From the IMG/VR virus record IMGVR_UViG_3300005077_000003, positions 96,001-160,000 of that record: DNA of 64,000 nucleotides, one strand, 5' to 3'. The notes below the pieces were generated by a model, which was not told the origin of the DNA, searched no databases, and worked only from the letters and a program-made list of their open reading frames with translations. The position numbers and the translations under genes were made by a program. The DNA is from a virus. Positions 2,119 through 41,841 of the stretch are shown one piece after another (positions within the stretch are counted from its first letter, which is position 1; the number at the start of each line of letters is the position of its first letter).

Positions 2119-3273
2119 ATGAGAGCGCTTAAGACGTACGATCATATGATTGCAGACTCGCTAATTTATTTAGCTGAGAATACTGATATAACATATTTAT
2201 CAGAAGGATCGGTCGCGAGATCTCTAGTAGAAGCTACTATGCTAGAGATTGCTAAAGTACAAGAATATATAGCTGCTGGTTATGCCAATGTTTTTATTAA
2301 CTCAGCTACGGGGACATATCTTGATCTTATAGGGGAGATGGTTGGGACAGCCAGACTTACCAGTGCTAAGTCATCAGTTTCAGCAGAAGATAAAAATATT
2401 AAGTTTAGCGTGGTTTCTGGCGTATTAAGGGACAAATTCCCTCACCCAACTGATTCTACATTAGGACAAATTCCGGCTGGAATTATAATACAAACGTCAG
2501 ATGGTGCAATAAAATTCATTACTTCTGCTGCGATAACCTTCCCAGGAGGCGCCACAGAAGTCTTTGTAAGCGCAGAAGCGGAGGATTATGGCTCCATATA
2601 TAACATAGGTAAATACAGGCTAAATACGCATGATGGGCCGTCTGGAGTAAGCGTCACTAATCTATACCCTATAAGCAATGGCGGATCAGAAGAGAGTGAT
2701 GCCAACTATAGATATAGGCTAAGCAATATATTTGCTGCAGCTCCTTCTTCAAATGCGACATCTATAAGATTAGCCGTAGCTGGGATACCAGATGTTTCGC
2801 GCGTCATTTTAAATGAGTACTCAAGAGGAGCTGGCACTTTTGATGCTATGCTAATTCCTATTGGTAATAAGGTAAGCTCCAGAGCCAGAAGCTTGGCTCA
2901 AGCAGCCGTAAATCACGCATCTGCATTTGGTGTAAGTGCATTTGTAACAGAACCATCTTATTTGCCATTCAAAATAACAATACAATTAATACCAGCTAAT
3001 GGTGCGACAGCAGGTACTGTGGATGTTAATAGAATTAGTGCTAAAAATGCAGTACTTAATTATATGGAAACCATCCCCATTGGTGGAGAGCTTATAATAA
3101 ATAGGCTCCGCGCCGCAGTTATTGACAGCGTAATAAGCCAAATAAAAGACATAAAGATTATTGATATATGCTTAGAAGGTCGTTCTCGCGTAATTAGAAA
3201 TTATCAGCTAGAAAGAAACCAGCTGTTCACACCAGACACAGAATCAGGCAGCGAAGCTGTTGTTATAGTATGA
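2119..3273 (+). CDS. Baseplate J-like protein
   Basis: Motifs ATGTYLDLIG, VSAEAEDYGSIYNIG and NGGSEESDANYRYR (the GGxDxEsD..YR.R pattern of Baseplate_J). Confidence 0.88.
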   Translation: MRALKTYDHMIADSLIYLAENTDITYLSEGSVARSLVEATMLEIAKVQEYIAAGYANVFINSATGTYLDLIGEMVGTARLTSAKSSVSAEDKNIKFSVVSGVLRDKFPHPTDSTLGQIPAGIIIQTSDGAIKFITSAAITFPGGATEVFVSAEAEDYGSIYNIGKYRLNTHDGPSGVSVTNLYPISNGGSEESDANYRYRLSNIFAAAPSSNATSIRLAVAGIPDVSRVILNEYSRGAGTFDAMLIPIGNKVSSRARSLAQAAVNHASAFGVSAFVTEPSYLPFKITIQLIPANGATAGTVDVNRISAKNAVLNYMETIPIGGELIINRLRAAVIDSVISQIKDIKIIDICLEGRSRVIRNYQLERNQLFTPDTESGSEAVVIV

Positions 3274-29803: not shown

Positions 29804-29804
29804 A

Positions 29805-29951
29805 ATATGGAGTACTTGTAGAGATTTACTAAATCTTAGTGGCGGTGTATATTCAGTAGACATACATCCAAGTGGCTCTTATGCAGTAGTTTCAAATAGC
29901 AACACATTCTCCTACAATAGTGTTGGAGACATAATTTGTATTAACCTATAA
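29805..29951 (+). CDS. Unannotated 48-codon mini-ORF lacking a canonical start in frame
   Basis: Frame ATA TGG AGT ACT TGT...AAC CTA TAA fills the whole gap, and its TAA overlaps the next ATG. An ATG at 29807 is one base out of frame. Confidence 0.4.
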   Translation: MWSTCRDLLNLSGGVYSVDIHPSGSYAVVSNSNTFSYNSVGDIICINL

Positions 29952-31525
29952 TGGATATCTTTCAAGCTATAGAAGTATCTCCTCTTTCATCAGAAAGAGT
30001 AAGGTATCACTTATCAAAAATAAGCGAAGCACAATCTCAGTCAGGTGATATTGGAGAAGCTATAGCTGAAGCTATAACGGAGTTCAATAAATTCTTTTTG
30101 AATTATGGCAAACCATATTTTAAAGTAAATAAGTTTCATAAAAATATAGATACACCAAATTCAAAAAAATATAATGAAACTCTTGAAACATTAAAGGAAG
30201 ATATTGACAGACTATATAACATGGCAGAGGCTGCAGCAAACTCTACAGTCTCTGCCTATAACTATTCTTCTATCACATCAGAAGAAATAAAAAACCTTGC
30301 TGCTCAAGCATCTAGCAAAGTACTTGATCTTAAAATACTAAATGACTTTGTAAAAGGCACTACTATAGTAGCTGGCGACGACTTTATTGATACGTCTAAA
30401 ATAGATACGACTATACAACCAGAAACTACACAAGCCGAAGTTCTTGAGGGCGCAAGCTCTATTGGACTAAAAGCAGTAGGAGTAGAGCGAGTTAGCAGAC
30501 CAGACAACACATCTATCAGAATAACCCCTATTTCACCAGCATTTAGAATAGAACAATATTACACAACTAACCATTCTCTCTTTGGACATTCCATTGAAAG
30601 CCAAAATAGATACGTAAGCGCTGATAGAGTTAATACTGAACCAACCCCAGATAACATAGAGCGGTTTTACGAAGGCCATTTTTATGCACCAGTAGGCGAA
30701 ATAAGACCAGAAGGTGGAAGTTTAAACTTTAAATATATTGTTGATCCTGCTGATTTGCCACCAGAAATTGCCACAAGAGTAGTACAAAATAATACAACTG
30801 TAAGCGACGATGGCGTGGCAGAAGCTCAAGAATATAAGCATGCTGGGTATTATTCAGTAGTAGCAGCCTCTGAAGAAGACAAGCAGGCAATTAGGCTTAG
30901 AATGATTGATGGGAAGCCAGAAACCTTCTGGGAATGTGAATACGTTTGTGCTACGCCATCTCTTATAGATACAGTAAATATTGAAGATGGTATCGTAGAT
31001 GGATCAAGCGATACCGTTGCAAATGTTTCAGAAGAAGTAACTAGCGTTTCTGTAAATGTTAGCGCAGCAGAGGCATTAGCAAAAGCATATGACTTTGCAG
31101 GCAGAGATTTAATAATTCATATAGATTATGAATTTGATCAAGAAGTGCCAATGAACTTCGTTGTAATCAATCCTGTACAATTTCATACTTCAGCATTTGC
31201 TGAAGTTATAGATGTCGCCACGTCATCTAATGATAAAGAATTTGAAACAGTCGATGGATTTGATGAACAAATGTTTGATAAGATTCTTACTCCAGAAGCA
31301 AATAAGATAGTCAATAATGAAATTGTTGAAAAGACATTCGCGCCATCTAATTTTGCATATCAAGGACTTGGAGTATTTTCATTCCCTATGAGGATAGGGA
31401 ATAAACTTAGAGTAACCATAGCTATGAAAGACCCAGTATTAGTTCCATATGAAAGAATTCATATATTATTGCAAGAAACATTCTTGTTGACTAATACTAC
31501 AACGGTAAAGAAATCTCTATTCTAA
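29951..31525 (+). CDS. Virion structural protein, paralogue family member 2, N-terminal part (524 aa)
   Basis: Same helical N-terminus and KPETFWE...LRVTI pattern as the paralogues, but it stops before the final Y..G.KEI strand. Confidence 0.7.
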   Translation: MDIFQAIEVSPLSSERVRYHLSKISEAQSQSGDIGEAIAEAITEFNKFFLNYGKPYFKVNKFHKNIDTPNSKKYNETLETLKEDIDRLYNMAEAAANSTVSAYNYSSITSEEIKNLAAQASSKVLDLKILNDFVKGTTIVAGDDFIDTSKIDTTIQPETTQAEVLEGASSIGLKAVGVERVSRPDNTSIRITPISPAFRIEQYYTTNHSLFGHSIESQNRYVSADRVNTEPTPDNIERFYEGHFYAPVGEIRPEGGSLNFKYIVDPADLPPEIATRVVQNNTTVSDDGVAEAQEYKHAGYYSVVAASEEDKQAIRLRMIDGKPETFWECEYVCATPSLIDTVNIEDGIVDGSSDTVANVSEEVTSVSVNVSAAEALAKAYDFAGRDLIIHIDYEFDQEVPMNFVVINPVQFHTSAFAEVIDVATSSNDKEFETVDGFDEQMFDKILTPEANKIVNNEIVEKTFAPSNFAYQGLGVFSFPMRIGNKLRVTIAMKDPVLVPYERIHILLQETFLLTNTTTVKKSLF

Positions 31526-31587
31526 TGGAAGATCTAAATAAATTATCATCTGCTTTAGCGGACTATATCATATATAGTATAAAATAA
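31525..31587 (+). CDS. 20-aa bridging mini-ORF MEDLNKLSSALADYIIYSIK
   Basis: ATG 31525-27 overlaps the upstream TAA; its TAA 31585-87 overlaps the downstream ATG (TAATG at both ends). Confidence 0.5.
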   Translation: MEDLNKLSSALADYIIYSIK

Positions 31588-32387
31588 TGGGCTGGTTTTC
31601 AAAATCATCTACTACAATTACAAAGACTACTACTGTAGCTAGTACTGTAGTAAAGTTATCATATTTGCAAACGCTTGCTACTTCCCAAAATTTAATAAAT
31701 GCGTCTGATCTAGAAACAGAAGCATTTGATGAAGACATAAAAAATGCACAACAAAAAGATTCCTTAATAAAAGCCCACGGCATAATTGGCGGGTTAATAG
31801 GTGCTGGATTCGGCGCTATTGGAGCTATATTAGGATTCTTTGGATTTGGACATACTAAAGTATCAACTAATGAAAACCTGAAATCTTCTGGAGCTAAAGT
31901 AAAAGATACTTGGAACCAGCCATATTTCGACAAAATATCCTACAAGTTGGGTATTAAAGAAATGGCTGTATCAAGGTATACATTTGCAGATACATCAGAA
32001 TTTACATCTGTAGCATATGGATCTCCAAAAGAGATTATAAAAATTTCATTAGTTGTTGACGAATATATACCTGCTCAATTTGATTCATCACAAGTATGGT
32101 TGAAATACTATATAAAAATAGAGGGAGAAAATAATTGGGTAAGAATTAATCCGCTAAATAAGCCCACTATTTTTGATAGCGAAGGTCTTATAGTTCCAAG
32201 AATACTCAATTATAATATACCAAAGCCGACTTCAGCACAAATAGAGGACAAATACCAATATACTTCAGATCCAGTAAAACAAGTTAGAATTAGAGTTGTA
32301 TTATCTAGGCCGTCAGGCAGCGGGAATGAAGCATCAATAACTCCTCTATTAAAATCATATAGAATAGCAATGCACCCAAGAGAATGA
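31587..32387 (+). CDS. Paralogue family member 2, C-terminal part, with a glycine-zipper hydrophobic segment (266 aa)
   Basis: GIIGGLIGAGFGAIGAILGFFGFG; ISYKLGIKEM and ITPLLKSYRI match the C-terminal halves of the paralogues. Confidence 0.7.
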   Translation: MGWFSKSSTTITKTTTVASTVVKLSYLQTLATSQNLINASDLETEAFDEDIKNAQQKDSLIKAHGIIGGLIGAGFGAIGAILGFFGFGHTKVSTNENLKSSGAKVKDTWNQPYFDKISYKLGIKEMAVSRYTFADTSEFTSVAYGSPKEIIKISLVVDEYIPAQFDSSQVWLKYYIKIEGENNWVRINPLNKPTIFDSEGLIVPRILNYNIPKPTSAQIEDKYQYTSDPVKQVRIRVVLSRPSGSGNEASITPLLKSYRIAMHPRE

Positions 32388-37402: not shown

Positions 37403-37684
37403 ATGACTGACTTATCAGGAAGAGTTGATGCATTAGAGTCTGGACTAACTTCTTTAGAAGGTCAAATACTTGCATTACCAACGAATAGTGATATATCAAA
37501 TTTTACACAGCTAATATCTGGTAAATTAAATACAATAGAAACTAGTTTAAATAATCATGGCGATGTTATTACACAATTAATACAAAGCTTTGCTAATTTA
37601 AAAAATACAATTCTTGGTATTGATACTGCTTTTGCTGCACATACCGGCACTACTACCGGCGAAGGCGTACACGGACATCAATGA
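37403..37684 (+). CDS. Small coiled-coil fibre/spike-like protein with C-terminal HxH (93 aa)
   Basis: Heptads ([19 protein letters not shown]...) ending AHTG...VHGHQ. Confidence 0.55.
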
Positions 37685-40600
37685 GAATAAATGCGCAAAC
37701 ATTTAAGATACATTCTGGTGGATCAGGTGTAAAGGAAGTAGAAAAGTTTATAGCTAATCGAATTGGCAGAGATCTTAGTTTAATACATAGCATCTCTGCT
37801 ATTTCTATAAATGCGACTACTACAGAATTAACTTTAAATTATTACGACTCACCAGAAATATCAGTACAAACAACAAACCCCCCTAATGGGTTTGTTGCTA
37901 GTACAGGTACGCCATTAGATGTAATATTTGCACAATATTCTTCGCCACTTAATGAAAACTCTATTAGTGGTGGCATTACATTAAATGGGTCAGAAACTAC
38001 TGGTTGGTATATAGAAGAAAATACTAATAATTATATATTAGCCATACAGATTAATACTGGATCACAAGACGAAGTTGCAGTAATAGTTGTATTAGATGAT
38101 TCCATAGAAGATTATAGGGGCAACCAACAAAACGGTAGTACAGTGCTAGGGTATACCACTAGCACTAGAGCAATAGTCACTGAAGGCTATGAGGATGTAT
38201 ATTCTGCTAAAGATATAAGGGGAACCGTAAAACTTAAATATGCTAGGATAGATGCGTCCGCTTCTCCTACCAGAAAAATAAAAGAAATATTAAATAAATC
38301 AGATGAACTACTAGCATATGCTTCAGTATCAAAAAATATTACTACTACCGAGCTGTTTATGCTAATAGTAGATGAAGCGGAGCCAGTAGTTAAAAGTATG
38401 TTCCCTCGTCAAGGAGCCAACAACCCTACCGACGTTTCTTTTGGCTCGCTTGTTTTGTCGTTTGCGAATCCTATTGATATAGTACAAGCTACTACCGTAT
38501 TAGGAACATTTGGTGTATATCAATCATATGGAGTTACACAAGATGTTCCACTAAATAGAATTAGCGCAATTGATGAGAGAACTATTAAGTTTGATACATC
38601 TGGTATATGGTCTGATTTATCTTTAACTACAGCATATGTAAATATATTTGTAAGACCAGGCCTTAGAAGTGCTAAGGGATTAGAGTCTACAAAAGGGTAT
38701 GTATTTGGTCACGAGATAAGTGAAATAGCTTTCGGAGGCGTTGGTGCACAAGGTCCTCCAGGTCCTCCAGGACCTACAGGAGCACAAGGAGAATCAGGAG
38801 CACCAGGAGAACAAGGACCCACTGGTGAGCCAGGTCCTACTGGTGCTACAGGTGACCCGGGTCCTCAAGGGGATCCTGGTCCTCCAGGAGAAGACGGTGA
38901 AGATGGAGCTCCAGGCCAAGGATTTATATGGTCTGGAGAATGGACCTCGACAAATACGTATCAACCATATGATGTAGTATATTATTCTGGTAATGGTGAC
39001 ACATATGTTTGCGTTCAGACTGACCTAGGACATCCTCCAGAAACAACCAGTAGTTGGGAGTTAATGGTTAGAGCCTATGATGGCACTGGTACTGGAGGTG
39101 GAGGTGGACCTATAGCTCACTCTGATCTAATAGATATGCCCTCTTCCCTTAATGATGATCATGATGGGAGATATAGCTTAACAGGCCACAACCATGACGG
39201 TATCTATGTCACTACCGGTGCTTTCTATACACTATCAGGTGAAGTAACCAATATATCAAATGATTTAACTACACTAGAATCAGCATTTGATACTCACTCT
39301 GGAGATGATACTATCCACTTTACTATGGGCGAAATATTAATTTCCCATAGTGATCTTACTGATTTAGATGCTGACGACCACACACATTACTATAATCAAA
39401 CCAGAGGAGATGCTCGCTATGCCTTATCCGGTCATAATCACGACAGCTCTTACCCTACTATAGGTAGCTTTAGCTATCTATCGGGACAAGTTGGGACACT
39501 TTCCACTGATTTAGAAATACTATCAGGTGACTTAGATACACATACATCGGACTCCACAATTCACTATACTGTAGACAGTATAGTGCATAGTGATTTAGCA
39601 GAATTAGATGGCGATGACCATACACAATATTATAACCAAACCAGGGGAGACGCGCGCTATGCTTTGTCGGGGCATAACCATGATAGTTCCTACCCAACAA
39701 TAGGCGCATTTACTTCTTTATCAGGTACAGTAGCCACTTTAGTAACCGACTTAGCTACTACTTCCGGCGACCTTTCCGCCCACACTTCTGATAATACCAT
39801 TCACTTTACTGAAGACTCTATTTCTCATAGTGCTATAGATGACTTAACCTCTGATGACCACCTTCAGTACTTTACCACAGGTAGAGCAGACACAAGATAT
39901 TCACAAACCGGCCATACTCATACACAGTTTGATGATATTAGACCAGATGCTTTTGCATTATCTGGCGGCAACTGGTCGGCAGTTCCAACCTATGTACTAG
40001 GCGATGTAGTATTTCATAGTGGAATATCTTATGTAGCTAGACAGTCCAGCACTGCCAAAACTCCCGCGCCTATTTCAGCATATTGGTACCAATTAGGTAC
40101 ATTAACAACATATACTGGATTTAGCGGCGCCAGTACGTCAATAGATATTACTGCCGTACACTATCAAGGCCCATGGAGTGATGTAGAATATTACTATGAA
40201 AATGATCTAGTAACATATAGCGGATTAGCCTATATAAATATACAAGAGATTATATCTAATCCACCAACTGATACAGATTATTGGGCTAATATAGGCGTAC
40301 TTACTGGATACCTAGATGACTATCTTACTGGTGGAGCAGGTACATACGTAGCCCTTTCCGGCGCATTTTCTGGAGCTTCTATAGACAACATAGCCACGTT
40401 TGCTACTGCTGATGGTCTACAAATAAAAGATTCTGGTGTAGACATAACTAAGGTGGCCCGCTTACAAGAGCATAATACATATACTGCCCCCAATACATTC
40501 CAGGGAGATGCTGGCTTTGAATCTGATGCTTATTTTAATGAGCAAGCAGTCTTTAGTAAAGGCATAAAAACTCCTAGTGTTTTATTAATCCCTAGCGGCC

Positions 40601-41841
40601 AATCATTTAGGCCAGACTTTGGCGTTTCCTATCTACAATATGCAAATGCAAGTTCTTTTACTACTGGCTCAATACAAATACCAGAATGCATTGATTTAGC
40701 TAGCGGGAAAACAATAGAATTATTATTGTTAGCTCCAGCAGTTGATTTACCAATTGGTTATAACAATAGCTGGAACTGGGTTGCAGACAGATCAACTACA
40801 GTATGTGCTAATGATAATATAAAAATAAAATTTATATGTATTGATGAAACTAGCCAATCTGGTATTTGGGTTGATATGTCGAGAAACAACCCGCCAATGC
40901 CAGCTGTGCATAGCCACGCATATCATAATGGTCAAGGTAACTTAGGAGTATCTGGAGATCTTACAGTAGAAAGCGGGCTATCAGTCGGTGGCTTAATTAA
41001 TGGCGTCGACTTAACTGGTCACACTGATGATGCAACAATACATTTTACTGAAGGCTCTATTTCACATAGCAACATAGACAACTTAGACGCTGATGACCAT
41101 ACACAATACTATAATGAGACCAGAGGGGACGCTAGATATAGCTTAACCGGACATACTCACACAGAGTATACTACAGACGTAGAGTATAACTATCTTTCTG
41201 GAGAAGTAAATACACATACGTCAGACTCCACAATACATTTCACAGAAGCGTCAATTGATCATACTAATATACAAAATATTGGTACCAATACTCACTCACA
41301 AATAGATACTGCCATATCTTCTGGAGTTTCCCACAGAGCTGATTCTACTATACATTTTACTGAAGGATCTATATCCCACAGTAATATAGACGATCTAGAT
41401 GCAGATGATCATACTCAGTATCATAATGATACCAGAGGTGACACAAGATATTTATACACTGGTAATGCTTCTTCGTATACACCTACAACAGACTATCACC
41501 CAGCTACCAAGGTATATGTAGATGACCTGGTAAGCGATGCTTATTATTATCAACCAGTAATAAATATTGCTGGAAACCTCTCTCTTACTGCTGCGCATAG
41601 AAATGTATTTGTAAATGCTACCGCCACATCTTATACTGTAATCCCGCCTAATCCTACAACAGTATCCGGCCACGTATTCTCTACTACAAAAACAGATTCT
41701 AGTGCCTATACGGTAACAGTAAACCCTGCTGGCGCTAATACTATTAATGGCTCATTAACATATGTACTTACTGCACAGTATGATAGTATTACCTATATTA
41801 GTGATGGTACAGAGTATAAAATTATTGGAAAGTATCCATAA
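37681..41841 (+). CDS. Long mosaic fibre protein: two Ig-like (Big_5) domains, collagen triple helix, three CBM5/12-like modules and His-rich repeats (1386 aa)
   Basis: TTNPPNG...[13 protein letters not shown] and SMFPRQGA...LSFANPID (Ig-like); Gly-X-Y run; three W...Y...DVV..SG..Y modules; repeated HxxDxTIHFT and DDHTQY. Confidence 0.75.
38743..38922 (+). repeat. Collagen-like Gly-X-Y repeat, 19-20 triplets
   Basis: [58 protein letters not shown]. Confidence 0.95.
39118..39921 (+). repeat. His/Asp-rich protein repeat block 1 (about 75-80 aa unit; three full units plus one partial)
   Basis: Unit H-x2-D-x-TIH(F/Y)T...HS-x-L/I-x2-L-x2-DDH-x2-Y...RGDARY-x2-(S/T)GH(N/T)H; synonymous sites have diverged. 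Confidence 0.9.
41020..41451 (+). repeat. His/Asp-rich protein repeat block 2 (three TIHFTE units)
   Basis: [16 protein letters not shown]..., [16 protein letters not shown]..., [16 protein letters not shown].... Confidence 0.9.

Follow-up and report, generated by a model that had tools for sequence, protein, structure and literature searches.

A baseplate-module gene divided at a beta-hairpin turn in an uncultured phage, with a conserved micro-ORF in the gap

Genes of T4-like phages are known to occur in pieces, as nrdA-a and nrdA-b of Aeh1 with mobE, genes 39 and 60 of T4 with mobA, and 43A and 43B with untranslated sequence or a seg gene between them; the gap in gene 43 of 44RR holds an untranslated spacer only, and an endonuclease is therefore common but not obligatory in the class (PMC2988022). 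Two other arrangements resemble these outwardly: the translational bypass of T4 gene 60, with its matched codons, take-off hairpin, non-coding gap, and nascent-peptide signal (PMC5462505), and the "fractured genes," which have split inteins and an endonuclease gene between the parts (Dassa et al. 2009, PMC2677866). Here we analyze a stretch of 64,000 nucleotides (nt) from an uncultured phage (hereafter the window; positions 96001-160000 of the single 177,611-bp contig, 36.4% GC, of IMG/VR record IMGVR_UViG_3300005077_000003), in which the gene for a structural protein of the baseplate module is broken into two open reading frames (ORFs), the N-half and the C-half, with a 61-nt gap that a third, very short ORF fills. 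We favor, at a probability of about 0.78, natural gene fission at the turn of a beta-hairpin, giving two separately made proteins with a micro-gene in the gap between them and requiring no recoding. A split phage gene is of a known kind; this one stands out by its cut in a hairpin turn, its recurrence, at least one reversal, and the micro-gene in the gap.

As in the genes-in-pieces, the gene is contiguous in relatives and here forms two adjacent collinear ORFs, whose products would have to reassemble. The gap likewise varies, and among the related loci that we fetched (given L-numbers) it holds a homing endonuclease gene in L030 and L057 and a remnant of one in L056, with none in the gap of the window. 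Whereas the described cases concern enzymes of replication and nucleotide metabolism, the protein here is structural; its cut falls in a beta-hairpin turn, this site has gone from one state to the other several times, with a re-fusion among the changes, the endonuclease seemingly entered a junction that was already split (as L007 and L030 suggest), and the gap holds a conserved micro-ORF rather than an untranslated spacer. The locus also differs from the fractured genes, in that the N-half ends and the C-half begins with the family's own strands, Pfam finds no family in either half, and neither carries intein or Hint motifs, so that the halves could be joined only non-covalently.

The three ORFs and their two overlaps are arranged as follows.

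29951..31525, + strand: N-half gene, 524 amino acids (aa), in which long N-terminal helices and a middle domain precede a sheet of very long strands; it ends ...YERIHILLQETFLLTNTTTVKKSLF before its stop codon
31523..31527, + strand: TAATG, overlap of the N-half stop and the micro-ORF start
31525..31587, + strand: micro-ORF of 20 codons between N-half and C-half, MEDLNKLSSALADYIIYSIK and stop
31585..31589, + strand: TAATG, overlap of the micro-ORF stop and the C-half start, found also in L058
31587..32387, + strand: C-half gene, 266 aa, with the N-terminus MGWFSKSSTTITKTTTV...

The C-terminus of the N-half reads ...TTTVKKSLF, or over a longer stretch ...LLTNTTTVKKSLF, and the three further motifs of interest at the junction are a TTC at 31520-22, a TTT at 31596-98, and a TAGTAT at 31575-80; the positions that a preliminary description of the window had given for these sites and for the two large ORFs are correct to the base, and so is its mention of the TAATG overlaps. 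N-half, micro-ORF, and C-half lie in three different frames, each shifted by -1. Such a -1 overlap is the commonest gene junction of the genome (16 of ~83 junctions), -4 is also among the commonest, and almost all neighbors in the one-strand gene block around the locus are joined by one or the other. A Shine-Dalgarno-like motif is missing before the N-half, the micro-ORF, the C-half, and the next gene; it precedes 38% of the genome's genes against a background of 17%, and most genes here do without one. The TAATG and ATGA overlaps, shared with most gene pairs of the genome, are those of termination-reinitiation in phage operons. A short ORF that exactly bridges the 61-nt gap of a split protein is unlike the usual coupling and unusual, with the proviso that the literature was not searched for such relays.

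Both halves belong to one protein family. They match a single PHROG, phrog_21108, collinearly, the N-half at E 8.2e-10 (residues 35-172 on profile positions 36-171) and the C-half at E 5.6e-15 (residues 114-262 on positions 471-619), and the relatives in that family from the cultured jumbo phages KLEB27-3, Edson, and MTATph1 are one protein of 578-605 aa (KLEB27-3 gp056, 605 aa; Edson 0670; MTATph1 CDS0054). Residues 37-187 of KLEB27-3 gp056 correspond to N-half residues 36-190, residues 232-370 to N-half residues 347-481, and residues 446-597 to C-half residues 114-262, the last at 34% identity. Among the fetched loci, the fused protein of L006 (729 aa) shares 40% identity with the N-half, which corresponds to its residues 1-477, and 51% with the C-half; the fused protein of L055 has 808 aa, and an exhaustive profile search yielded about 40 further fused representatives of 660-940 aa. 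A word-index search for longer relatives of the C-half had returned none and was misleading on this point. We found 59 homologues of the N-half, down to 23% identity, and 69 of the C-half, of 146-466 aa; the profile search gave 622 hits, split and fused together. In many relatives the family is a single gene of about 580-830 aa, and the split is the dominant state only in the window's two nearest clades. A DNA search of annotated phages gave no match, a single-sequence search of viral contigs gave nothing where a profile then succeeded, and a scan of prokaryotic genome contigs gave neither a relative nor a hint of the host.

The pair is encoded between a gp6/J-like baseplate wedge gene (2119-3273; phrog_6, E 8.6e-39) and a tail fiber gene (37681-41841). 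The class of phrog_21108 is virion structural protein of 0305phi8-36-like and related large myophages, and both the profile match and the baseplate-to-fiber position place the window's protein there; N-half and C-half are halves of one virion protein of the baseplate/fiber module. Paralogous domain families have been described in the baseplate module of 0305phi8-36, which provides the cultured-relative context (PMC2147016). The preliminary description held that the two ORFs together rebuild the architecture of paralogues; this is borne out for the fused homologues, but for the flanking 919-aa and 982-aa genes BLASTP with the halves detected nothing and hhalign gave marginal similarity (E 0.004-0.08, probability below 10%). 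At the level of fold, the protein matches a set of uncharacterized virion proteins.

The position of the cut is conserved. Junctions were surveyed in about 60 fetched loci by means of two anchor motifs. In about 45 of them the cut falls at one and the same position of the alignment, and the consensus is ...K-K-[GS]-L-F and stop, followed by M-G-(L-F)-K-K-K-K...T.T..VVKLSYLQTLA. The length of the spacer between stop and start varies widely.

-1 nt (TAATG or TGATG): 9 loci
0 nt: 1 locus
1 nt: 12 loci
10 nt: L007 and L057
2, 18, 55, 61, 70, 75, 179, 453, 564, 1203, and 1327 nt: one locus each

In almost all split loci the C-half has its own start (ATG, GTG, or TTG), usually followed by Gly. L056 (2700-2770) has ATC where all relatives have ATG, with AGGAGG upstream, on a contig of 2x coverage; either an error or a rare non-canonical start could account for it. 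The C-half of most relatives begins MGKKKK and that of L058 begins MGKKSS, where the N-half ends ...GKGI. The uninterrupted turn is seen in the fused group that is sister to the window's large split clade, as ...KKKRTLF-GTKKK... (P0140); on this alignment, the Phe that ends the N-half and the Gly that follows Met in the C-half are the old turn residues (LF/G). An ancestral turn of the form ...K-K-x-L-F/G-K-K-K... would need only the five nucleotides TAATG between its Phe and Gly codons to become split; the products would then end in ...LF and begin with MG..., which would be why the terminal Phe and Gly-2 are conserved. About 15 loci carry turn residues on both sides of the cut, for example ...KGLFR followed by VGLFKKK and ...GRFRF followed by MGLFRKK; they include L007, L010, L013, L031, L032, L039, L041, L045, L047, and the window itself (...KSLF and MGWF, 31511-31598), and the doubling has the look of a short duplication that arose together with the cut. 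L013, the window's close relative, has 66% protein identity to the window in both halves, both of them open. Whether orthologues are fused had been posed as a question beforehand, and the family holds both states: L006, L055, KLEB27-3 gp056, and about 40 representatives are fused, and about 45 loci are split. Conservation of the mini-ORF or of the TTC/TTT pair had been raised likewise; the mini-ORF is kept in the window, L013, and L058 only, and the codon pair is not conserved.

An AlphaFold2 model of the fused L006 protein (predicted local distance difference test, pLDDT, 83.9; predicted template modeling score, pTM, 0.68) locates the cut. The model runs from N-terminal long helices through a middle domain to a long-strand sheet (341-363, 428-446, 454-474, 479-495), and thence to a helix (498-505, the YLETLA motif), a disordered linker (529-552), and a beta-sandwich (556-727). 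The last residue of the window's N-half corresponds to L006 F477, which lies in the four-residue turn between strands 454-474 and 479-495, and the earlier proposal that the break separates the two sides of one long hairpin is thereby supported. In the window, the elements on either side of the break are these.

31448..31522, + strand: last beta-strand of the N-half, hairpin arm 1 (residues 500-524; L006 strand 454-474)
31587..31661, + strand: head of the C-half, hairpin arm 2 (residues 1-25; L006 strand 479-495)
31764..31862, + strand: Gly-rich hydrophobic linker, the proposed "Gly-zipper" (C-half residues 60-92), variable and lineage-specific in alignment A1
31926..32384, + strand: C-terminal beta-sandwich (C-half residues 114-266), the family's most conserved part, pLDDT >90

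Conservation brackets the break: Y500 of the N-half is invariant and E501 and R502 nearly so (alignment A3), and directly after the C-half head comes the conserved helix VVKLSYLQTLA (L006 helix 498-505), in which Y26 and Q28 are invariant (alignment A1). Modeled alone, the C-half is confident only in the sandwich (residues 130-266), and its head (1-19) has a pLDDT of ~44, against ~90 for the same strand in the fused model. Co-folding of N-half residues 340-524 with C-half residues 1-266 scored 0.46, against 0.00 for the best of three controls, with at least 46% of contacts shared between runs and a partner pLDDT of at least 60. The mark so reached is attained by 58 of 80 solved complexes and two of 110 mismatched pairs, and at scores of 0.60 or less by seven of the 80 solved complexes and both of the passing mismatches, counts that hold only roughly because our own alignments were used. 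A search of solved structures with the family profile found no sequence relative, and the pass is therefore not owed to memory of a solved complex. The best fold matches are the phi812 baseplate, baseplates of contractile injection systems, and, for the C-terminal sandwich, CBM32/discoidin-like folds. Their global scores are all weak; for the two kinds of baseplate E is 1e-4 to 1e-3 and the TM-score 0.05-0.19.

Across the family, the same turn has been opened and closed more than once. An approximately unbiased (AU) test on the C-half alone did not reject a single split clade (p 0.16); the N-half columns were needed as well. In the resulting 780-column tree of both halves, L006 and L016, which are fused at this site, fall inside a split clade with 99% support, and a topology with all split forms together is rejected (log-likelihood difference, dlnL, 124.7; p-AU 3e-56); the nesting and the rejection together indicate a secondary re-fusion. 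A single split clade is also rejected over 132 C-regions or family members (dlnL 571, p 2e-101), and still so when the nested group is set aside (dlnL 366, p 6e-26); the tree of these 132 C-regions, itself weakly resolved, requires at least 13 changes of state. Split forms of other lineages, too, begin with a Met that precedes the YLQT-type motif by 13-25 residues; in L062 the ORF upstream terminates in a TAATG overlap, and for P0168 gene calls place an upstream gene of at least 277 aa before a 7-nt gap. By these sequence trees, the split and fused states have interchanged several times, including one re-fusion.

The gap of the window contains the micro-ORF, which is restricted to the clade (L058,(window,L013)), with supports of 97 and 98.

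Window: MEDLNKLSSALADYIIYSIK, 20 aa, TAATG at both ends
L058: MNDLDKITGDLADLITKLI, 19 aa, ATGA and TAATG at its ends
L013: MNNLDNLTRDLAEVISQLI, 19 aa, small gaps at its ends, with a 10-nt gap containing AGGT before the C-half start

All three share position and frame without indels, and the micro-ORF peptide is predicted to be an amphipathic helix. Their peptides are similar in shuffle tests (P 0.0035, <0.0005, and <0.0005), the differences by codon position number 25/11/32 with second positions changing least, and L4, L/I7, L11, A12, I15, and I19 are kept through synonymous changes, which exceed those of a neutral simulation that only required the frame to stay open (P 0.06, 0.016, and 0.0024). 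The preliminary description had pointed out that the mini-ORF fills the 61-nt gap exactly, with TAATG overlaps; an ATG-started ORF does so by chance in 0.14% of shuffles of this gap (P 0.0014; 0.024 in L013). In the window and L058 the micro-ORF leaves no untranslated gap between the halves. A profile of the micro-ORF run against the whole 177.6-kb genome and all fetched loci found only itself, L013, and L058, and a degenerate DNA pattern run against IMG/VR gave two chance hits inside unrelated longer ORFs. Derivation from the endonuclease ORFs was considered and dismissed for want of similarity (P >0.2). Small ORFs of 11, 24, and 23 aa also fill much of the spacers of L018 (539-717; 179 nt) and L027 (2392-2461; 70 nt).

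We consider the micro-ORF probably a real micro-gene for an amphipathic helix that would also keep translation coupled. A peptide without function, either the decaying remnant of a mobile gene or filler kept open purely as a ribosome relay, is an unlikely account that nevertheless deserves serious consideration. The junction does collect mobile genes that decay, as seen in L030 versus L007, in the remnant of L056, and in the ORF-free 453-nt spacer of L042; the spacer-filling mini-ORFs of L027, L018, and L056 are unrelated, as would fit a demand for an ORF rather than a given peptide; and the micro-peptides share 37-58% identity where the flanking proteins share ~66%. A want of function is harder to square with the lack of indels among the three loci, the hydrophobic positions retained through synonymous changes, the sparing of second codon positions, the synonymous excess over the neutral simulation, and the lack of likeness to endonuclease ORFs. 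A more ambitious proposal, which we regard as a good deal less probable still, is that the peptide is a third subunit whose amphipathic helix docks on the intermolecular hairpin or on the C-half head and so clamps or chaperones reassembly; if true, the window's lineage would build one baseplate protein from three translationally chained pieces.

Once open, the junction has received larger inserts in other lineages. L030 carries a 186-aa ORF of endonuclease VII/HNH type between the halves (1929-2489; phrog_1035, E 7.5e-24), and the near-identical L007 (2946-2955) has no endonuclease and a 10-nt spacer; since one locus has the gene and the other lacks it, the endonuclease probably entered an already split junction, and the pair suggests this order rather than an endonuclease that caused the split. 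Free-standing homing endonucleases typically show such presence/absence polymorphism. In L057 an HNH-type tail immediately precedes the C-half, and in L056 a 27-aa ORF with its start in a TAATG is similar to the N-terminus of the L030 endonuclease (P 0.005). At the same junction L004 carries a 441-aa ORF with a hydrophobic, signal-peptide-like N-terminus (1622-2947) and L026 a 398-aa ORF (1250-2446); the GC content of the two (0.44-0.46) exceeds that of the short spacers. The 453-nt spacer of L042 contains no ORF of at least 50 aa. Pfam found nothing in the inserted ORFs of L004, L026, and L030, of which PHROGs identified only that of L030. In L054 (4001-5989; P0056, 662 aa, an N-half homologue at 30% identity), a whole Hint/intein-like domain lies inside the last strand, with the borders ...KTKVKTS/CFPGYVLVD...VVAHN/FVNF...; the residue after His-Asn is Phe and not Cys, Ser, or Thr, so that canonical splicing looks impossible, and self-cleavage or decay is possible. 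The contig of P0017 has ORFs of 196, 328, 180, and 73 aa, a 185-nt gap, and a 192-aa ORF; its 73-aa junction ORF may be a less decayed insert.

Three explanations other than fission were weighed for the break itself. In a bypass of the T4 gene 60 type, peptidyl-tRNA-Phe would leave the TTC at 31520-22 and land on the TTT at 31596-98 to give one fused protein, as one model of the preliminary description had it. The layout is indeed that of gene 60, itself part of a gene split by a mobile element: a sense codon followed by a stop (TTC TAA, 31520-31525), a gap of tens of nucleotides, and a synonymous codon downstream, and the hopped sequence ...KKSLF-SKSSTT... would resemble the ...KKGLF-SSSTKK... 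of fused L006. The likeness, however, is one of layout only. TTC and TTT are synonymous and not identical codons, and among the testable features of gene 60 the window has only the adjacent stop, which is trivially true of any gene end. In contrast to gene 60, what separates the two parts here is itself a coding ORF, conserved and in a separate frame; the C-half possesses a start codon in nearly every relative (L056, with ATC, excepted), MG being widely conserved; and no take-off hairpin is found, the segment 31500-31620 having a minimum free energy of -14.6 kcal/mol (z -0.53) that 55 of 200 shuffles equal or better. Neither codon pair nor gap length is conserved: spacers in relatives run from -1 to 1327 nt, some with whole genes inside, and in L058, a member of the same small clade as the window, Phe codons are lacking on both sides of the break. 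Because of the variable spacers, the separate C-half start, the unconserved Phe pair, and the lack of RNA structure, we reject bypass and give it next to no credence; two genes with a variable spacer in relatives are among the signs that the preliminary description itself had named as contradicting its proposal. A short hop between the TTTAGA repeats that flank the L010 junction was also considered and dropped, as the repeat is absent in L008 and L009.

Expression of the C-half from an internal promoter of leaderless type in the spacer, uncoupled from the N-half, had been proposed on the strength of the TAGTAT six nucleotides before the ATG, and a weak sigma-70-like match (9/12 at 31543-31571) can be added, although sigma-70 may not be the type of the host. 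Promoter-like sites are not enriched in the region (17 versus 12.7 +/- 3.7) and the spacer match is among the weakest of them, L058 lacks the TAGTAT element, and the majority of relatives are without any spacer; we therefore hold this proposal to be very improbable. A search for a terminator after the N-half found none. An artefact of assembly or sequencing, or a dead gene, could be argued from the public reads, which leave the junction of this contig uncovered, but dozens of assemblies, independent of one another and from different samples, show this break too, both halves are open with 66% protein identity to L013, and the clean stop/start junction is typical of the genome, so that artefact or pseudogene is as remote a prospect as bypass.

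Under the fission that we favor, the C-half would be translated from its own ATG by termination-reinitiation within an operon of mostly overlapping genes, and the halves would rejoin non-covalently by strand complementation, the last strand of the N-half pairing with the first of the C-half. Over the family the same turn has switched between split and fused several times and, once opened, has taken in homing endonuclease genes, cargo ORFs, and a Hint domain. In the window's clade an insert of 55-75 nt carries the micro-gene of 19-20 codons, which would be translated and whose amphipathic-helix peptide is under constraint, and in the window the TAATG at both ends of the micro-ORF would link the halves and leave no untranslated gap to interrupt coupling. 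Part of this had been anticipated in a model of a genetically pre-cleaved protein: the natural split into separate conserved genes and the placement of the mini-ORF to keep coupling hold up, and its two membrane-related elements do not. Both are lineage-specific. The supposed fusion-peptide N-terminus, GWF, is not conserved, with MGKKKK in most relatives and MGKKSS in L058, and the supposed Gly-zipper membrane helix is a variable linker that is transmembrane-like in two of 36 homologues and modeled as disordered (pLDDT ~35) without a helix, as is its L006 equivalent (529-552).

Several points weigh against this account. The halves and the micro-peptide are predicted products, as is their presence in virions, and co-folding lends the reassembly of the halves only weak support. 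Split states outside the window's clade were assigned from protein length and N-terminus, two of them having been inspected at the locus level, in part; the trees were built by a quick method, and the groups tested were named after the first tree had been seen. The one public DNA run with a small share of the stretch gave a single 194-nt contig (31789-31981) that does not reach the junction, and among public sequencing runs no RNA run covering the stretch is listed. The case for the micro-ORF draws on three sequences and on pairwise tests that are non-independent, two of the six lying above 0.05; the mini-ORFs of L018, L027, and L056 are not significantly similar to it, and a mere constraint to keep the frame open would still be a lesser but possible account.

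The family has a further break, break A, upstream of the hairpin.

30968..31054, + strand: site of break A, an acidic inter-domain linker (N-half residues ~340-368) before the long-strand sheet, intact in the window

At this site L004, L016/17, L022, L025, L056, and L058 are split into ~330 + 178 aa (326 + 178 aa by gene calls in L058), with positions of 3499-3501 in L016, 2081 in L056, and 1287-1289 in L058, and on the tree these split forms are mingled with intact ones, the window's among them, a distribution as patchy as that of the hairpin cut. Between the 919-aa-type gene and the N-half, L056 (375-1001) carries an ORF of 208 aa that looks like a serine protease, its N-terminus being hydrophobic and its sequence containing GDSGSP; the 196-aa ORF of the P0017 contig occupies the equivalent place. 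In the window this interval is a gap of only 147 nt (29804-29950), with the region's best promoter-like matches (10/12 at 29924-29952).

Our findings suggest that the locus should be annotated as two genes and a micro-gene, and not as a pseudogene, a frameshift, or a recoding site, and that dozens of related metagenomic phages should be treated likewise; for the study of recoding, it offers a worked example of a bypass-like layout that is none. The order of events indicated by L007 and L030 bears on a question raised for gene 43 of the T-even phages (PMC2988022). For protein structure, the hairpin turn is a natural split point that may be of use for split-protein design and for reading cryo-EM maps of large baseplates. 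In the evolution of these genomes, a junction made by fission goes on to receive endonucleases, cargo genes, a Hint domain, and a new micro-gene, within a structural protein that appears to tolerate a backbone cut at a beta-hairpin turn and that has been cut there repeatedly and re-joined in at least one lineage.

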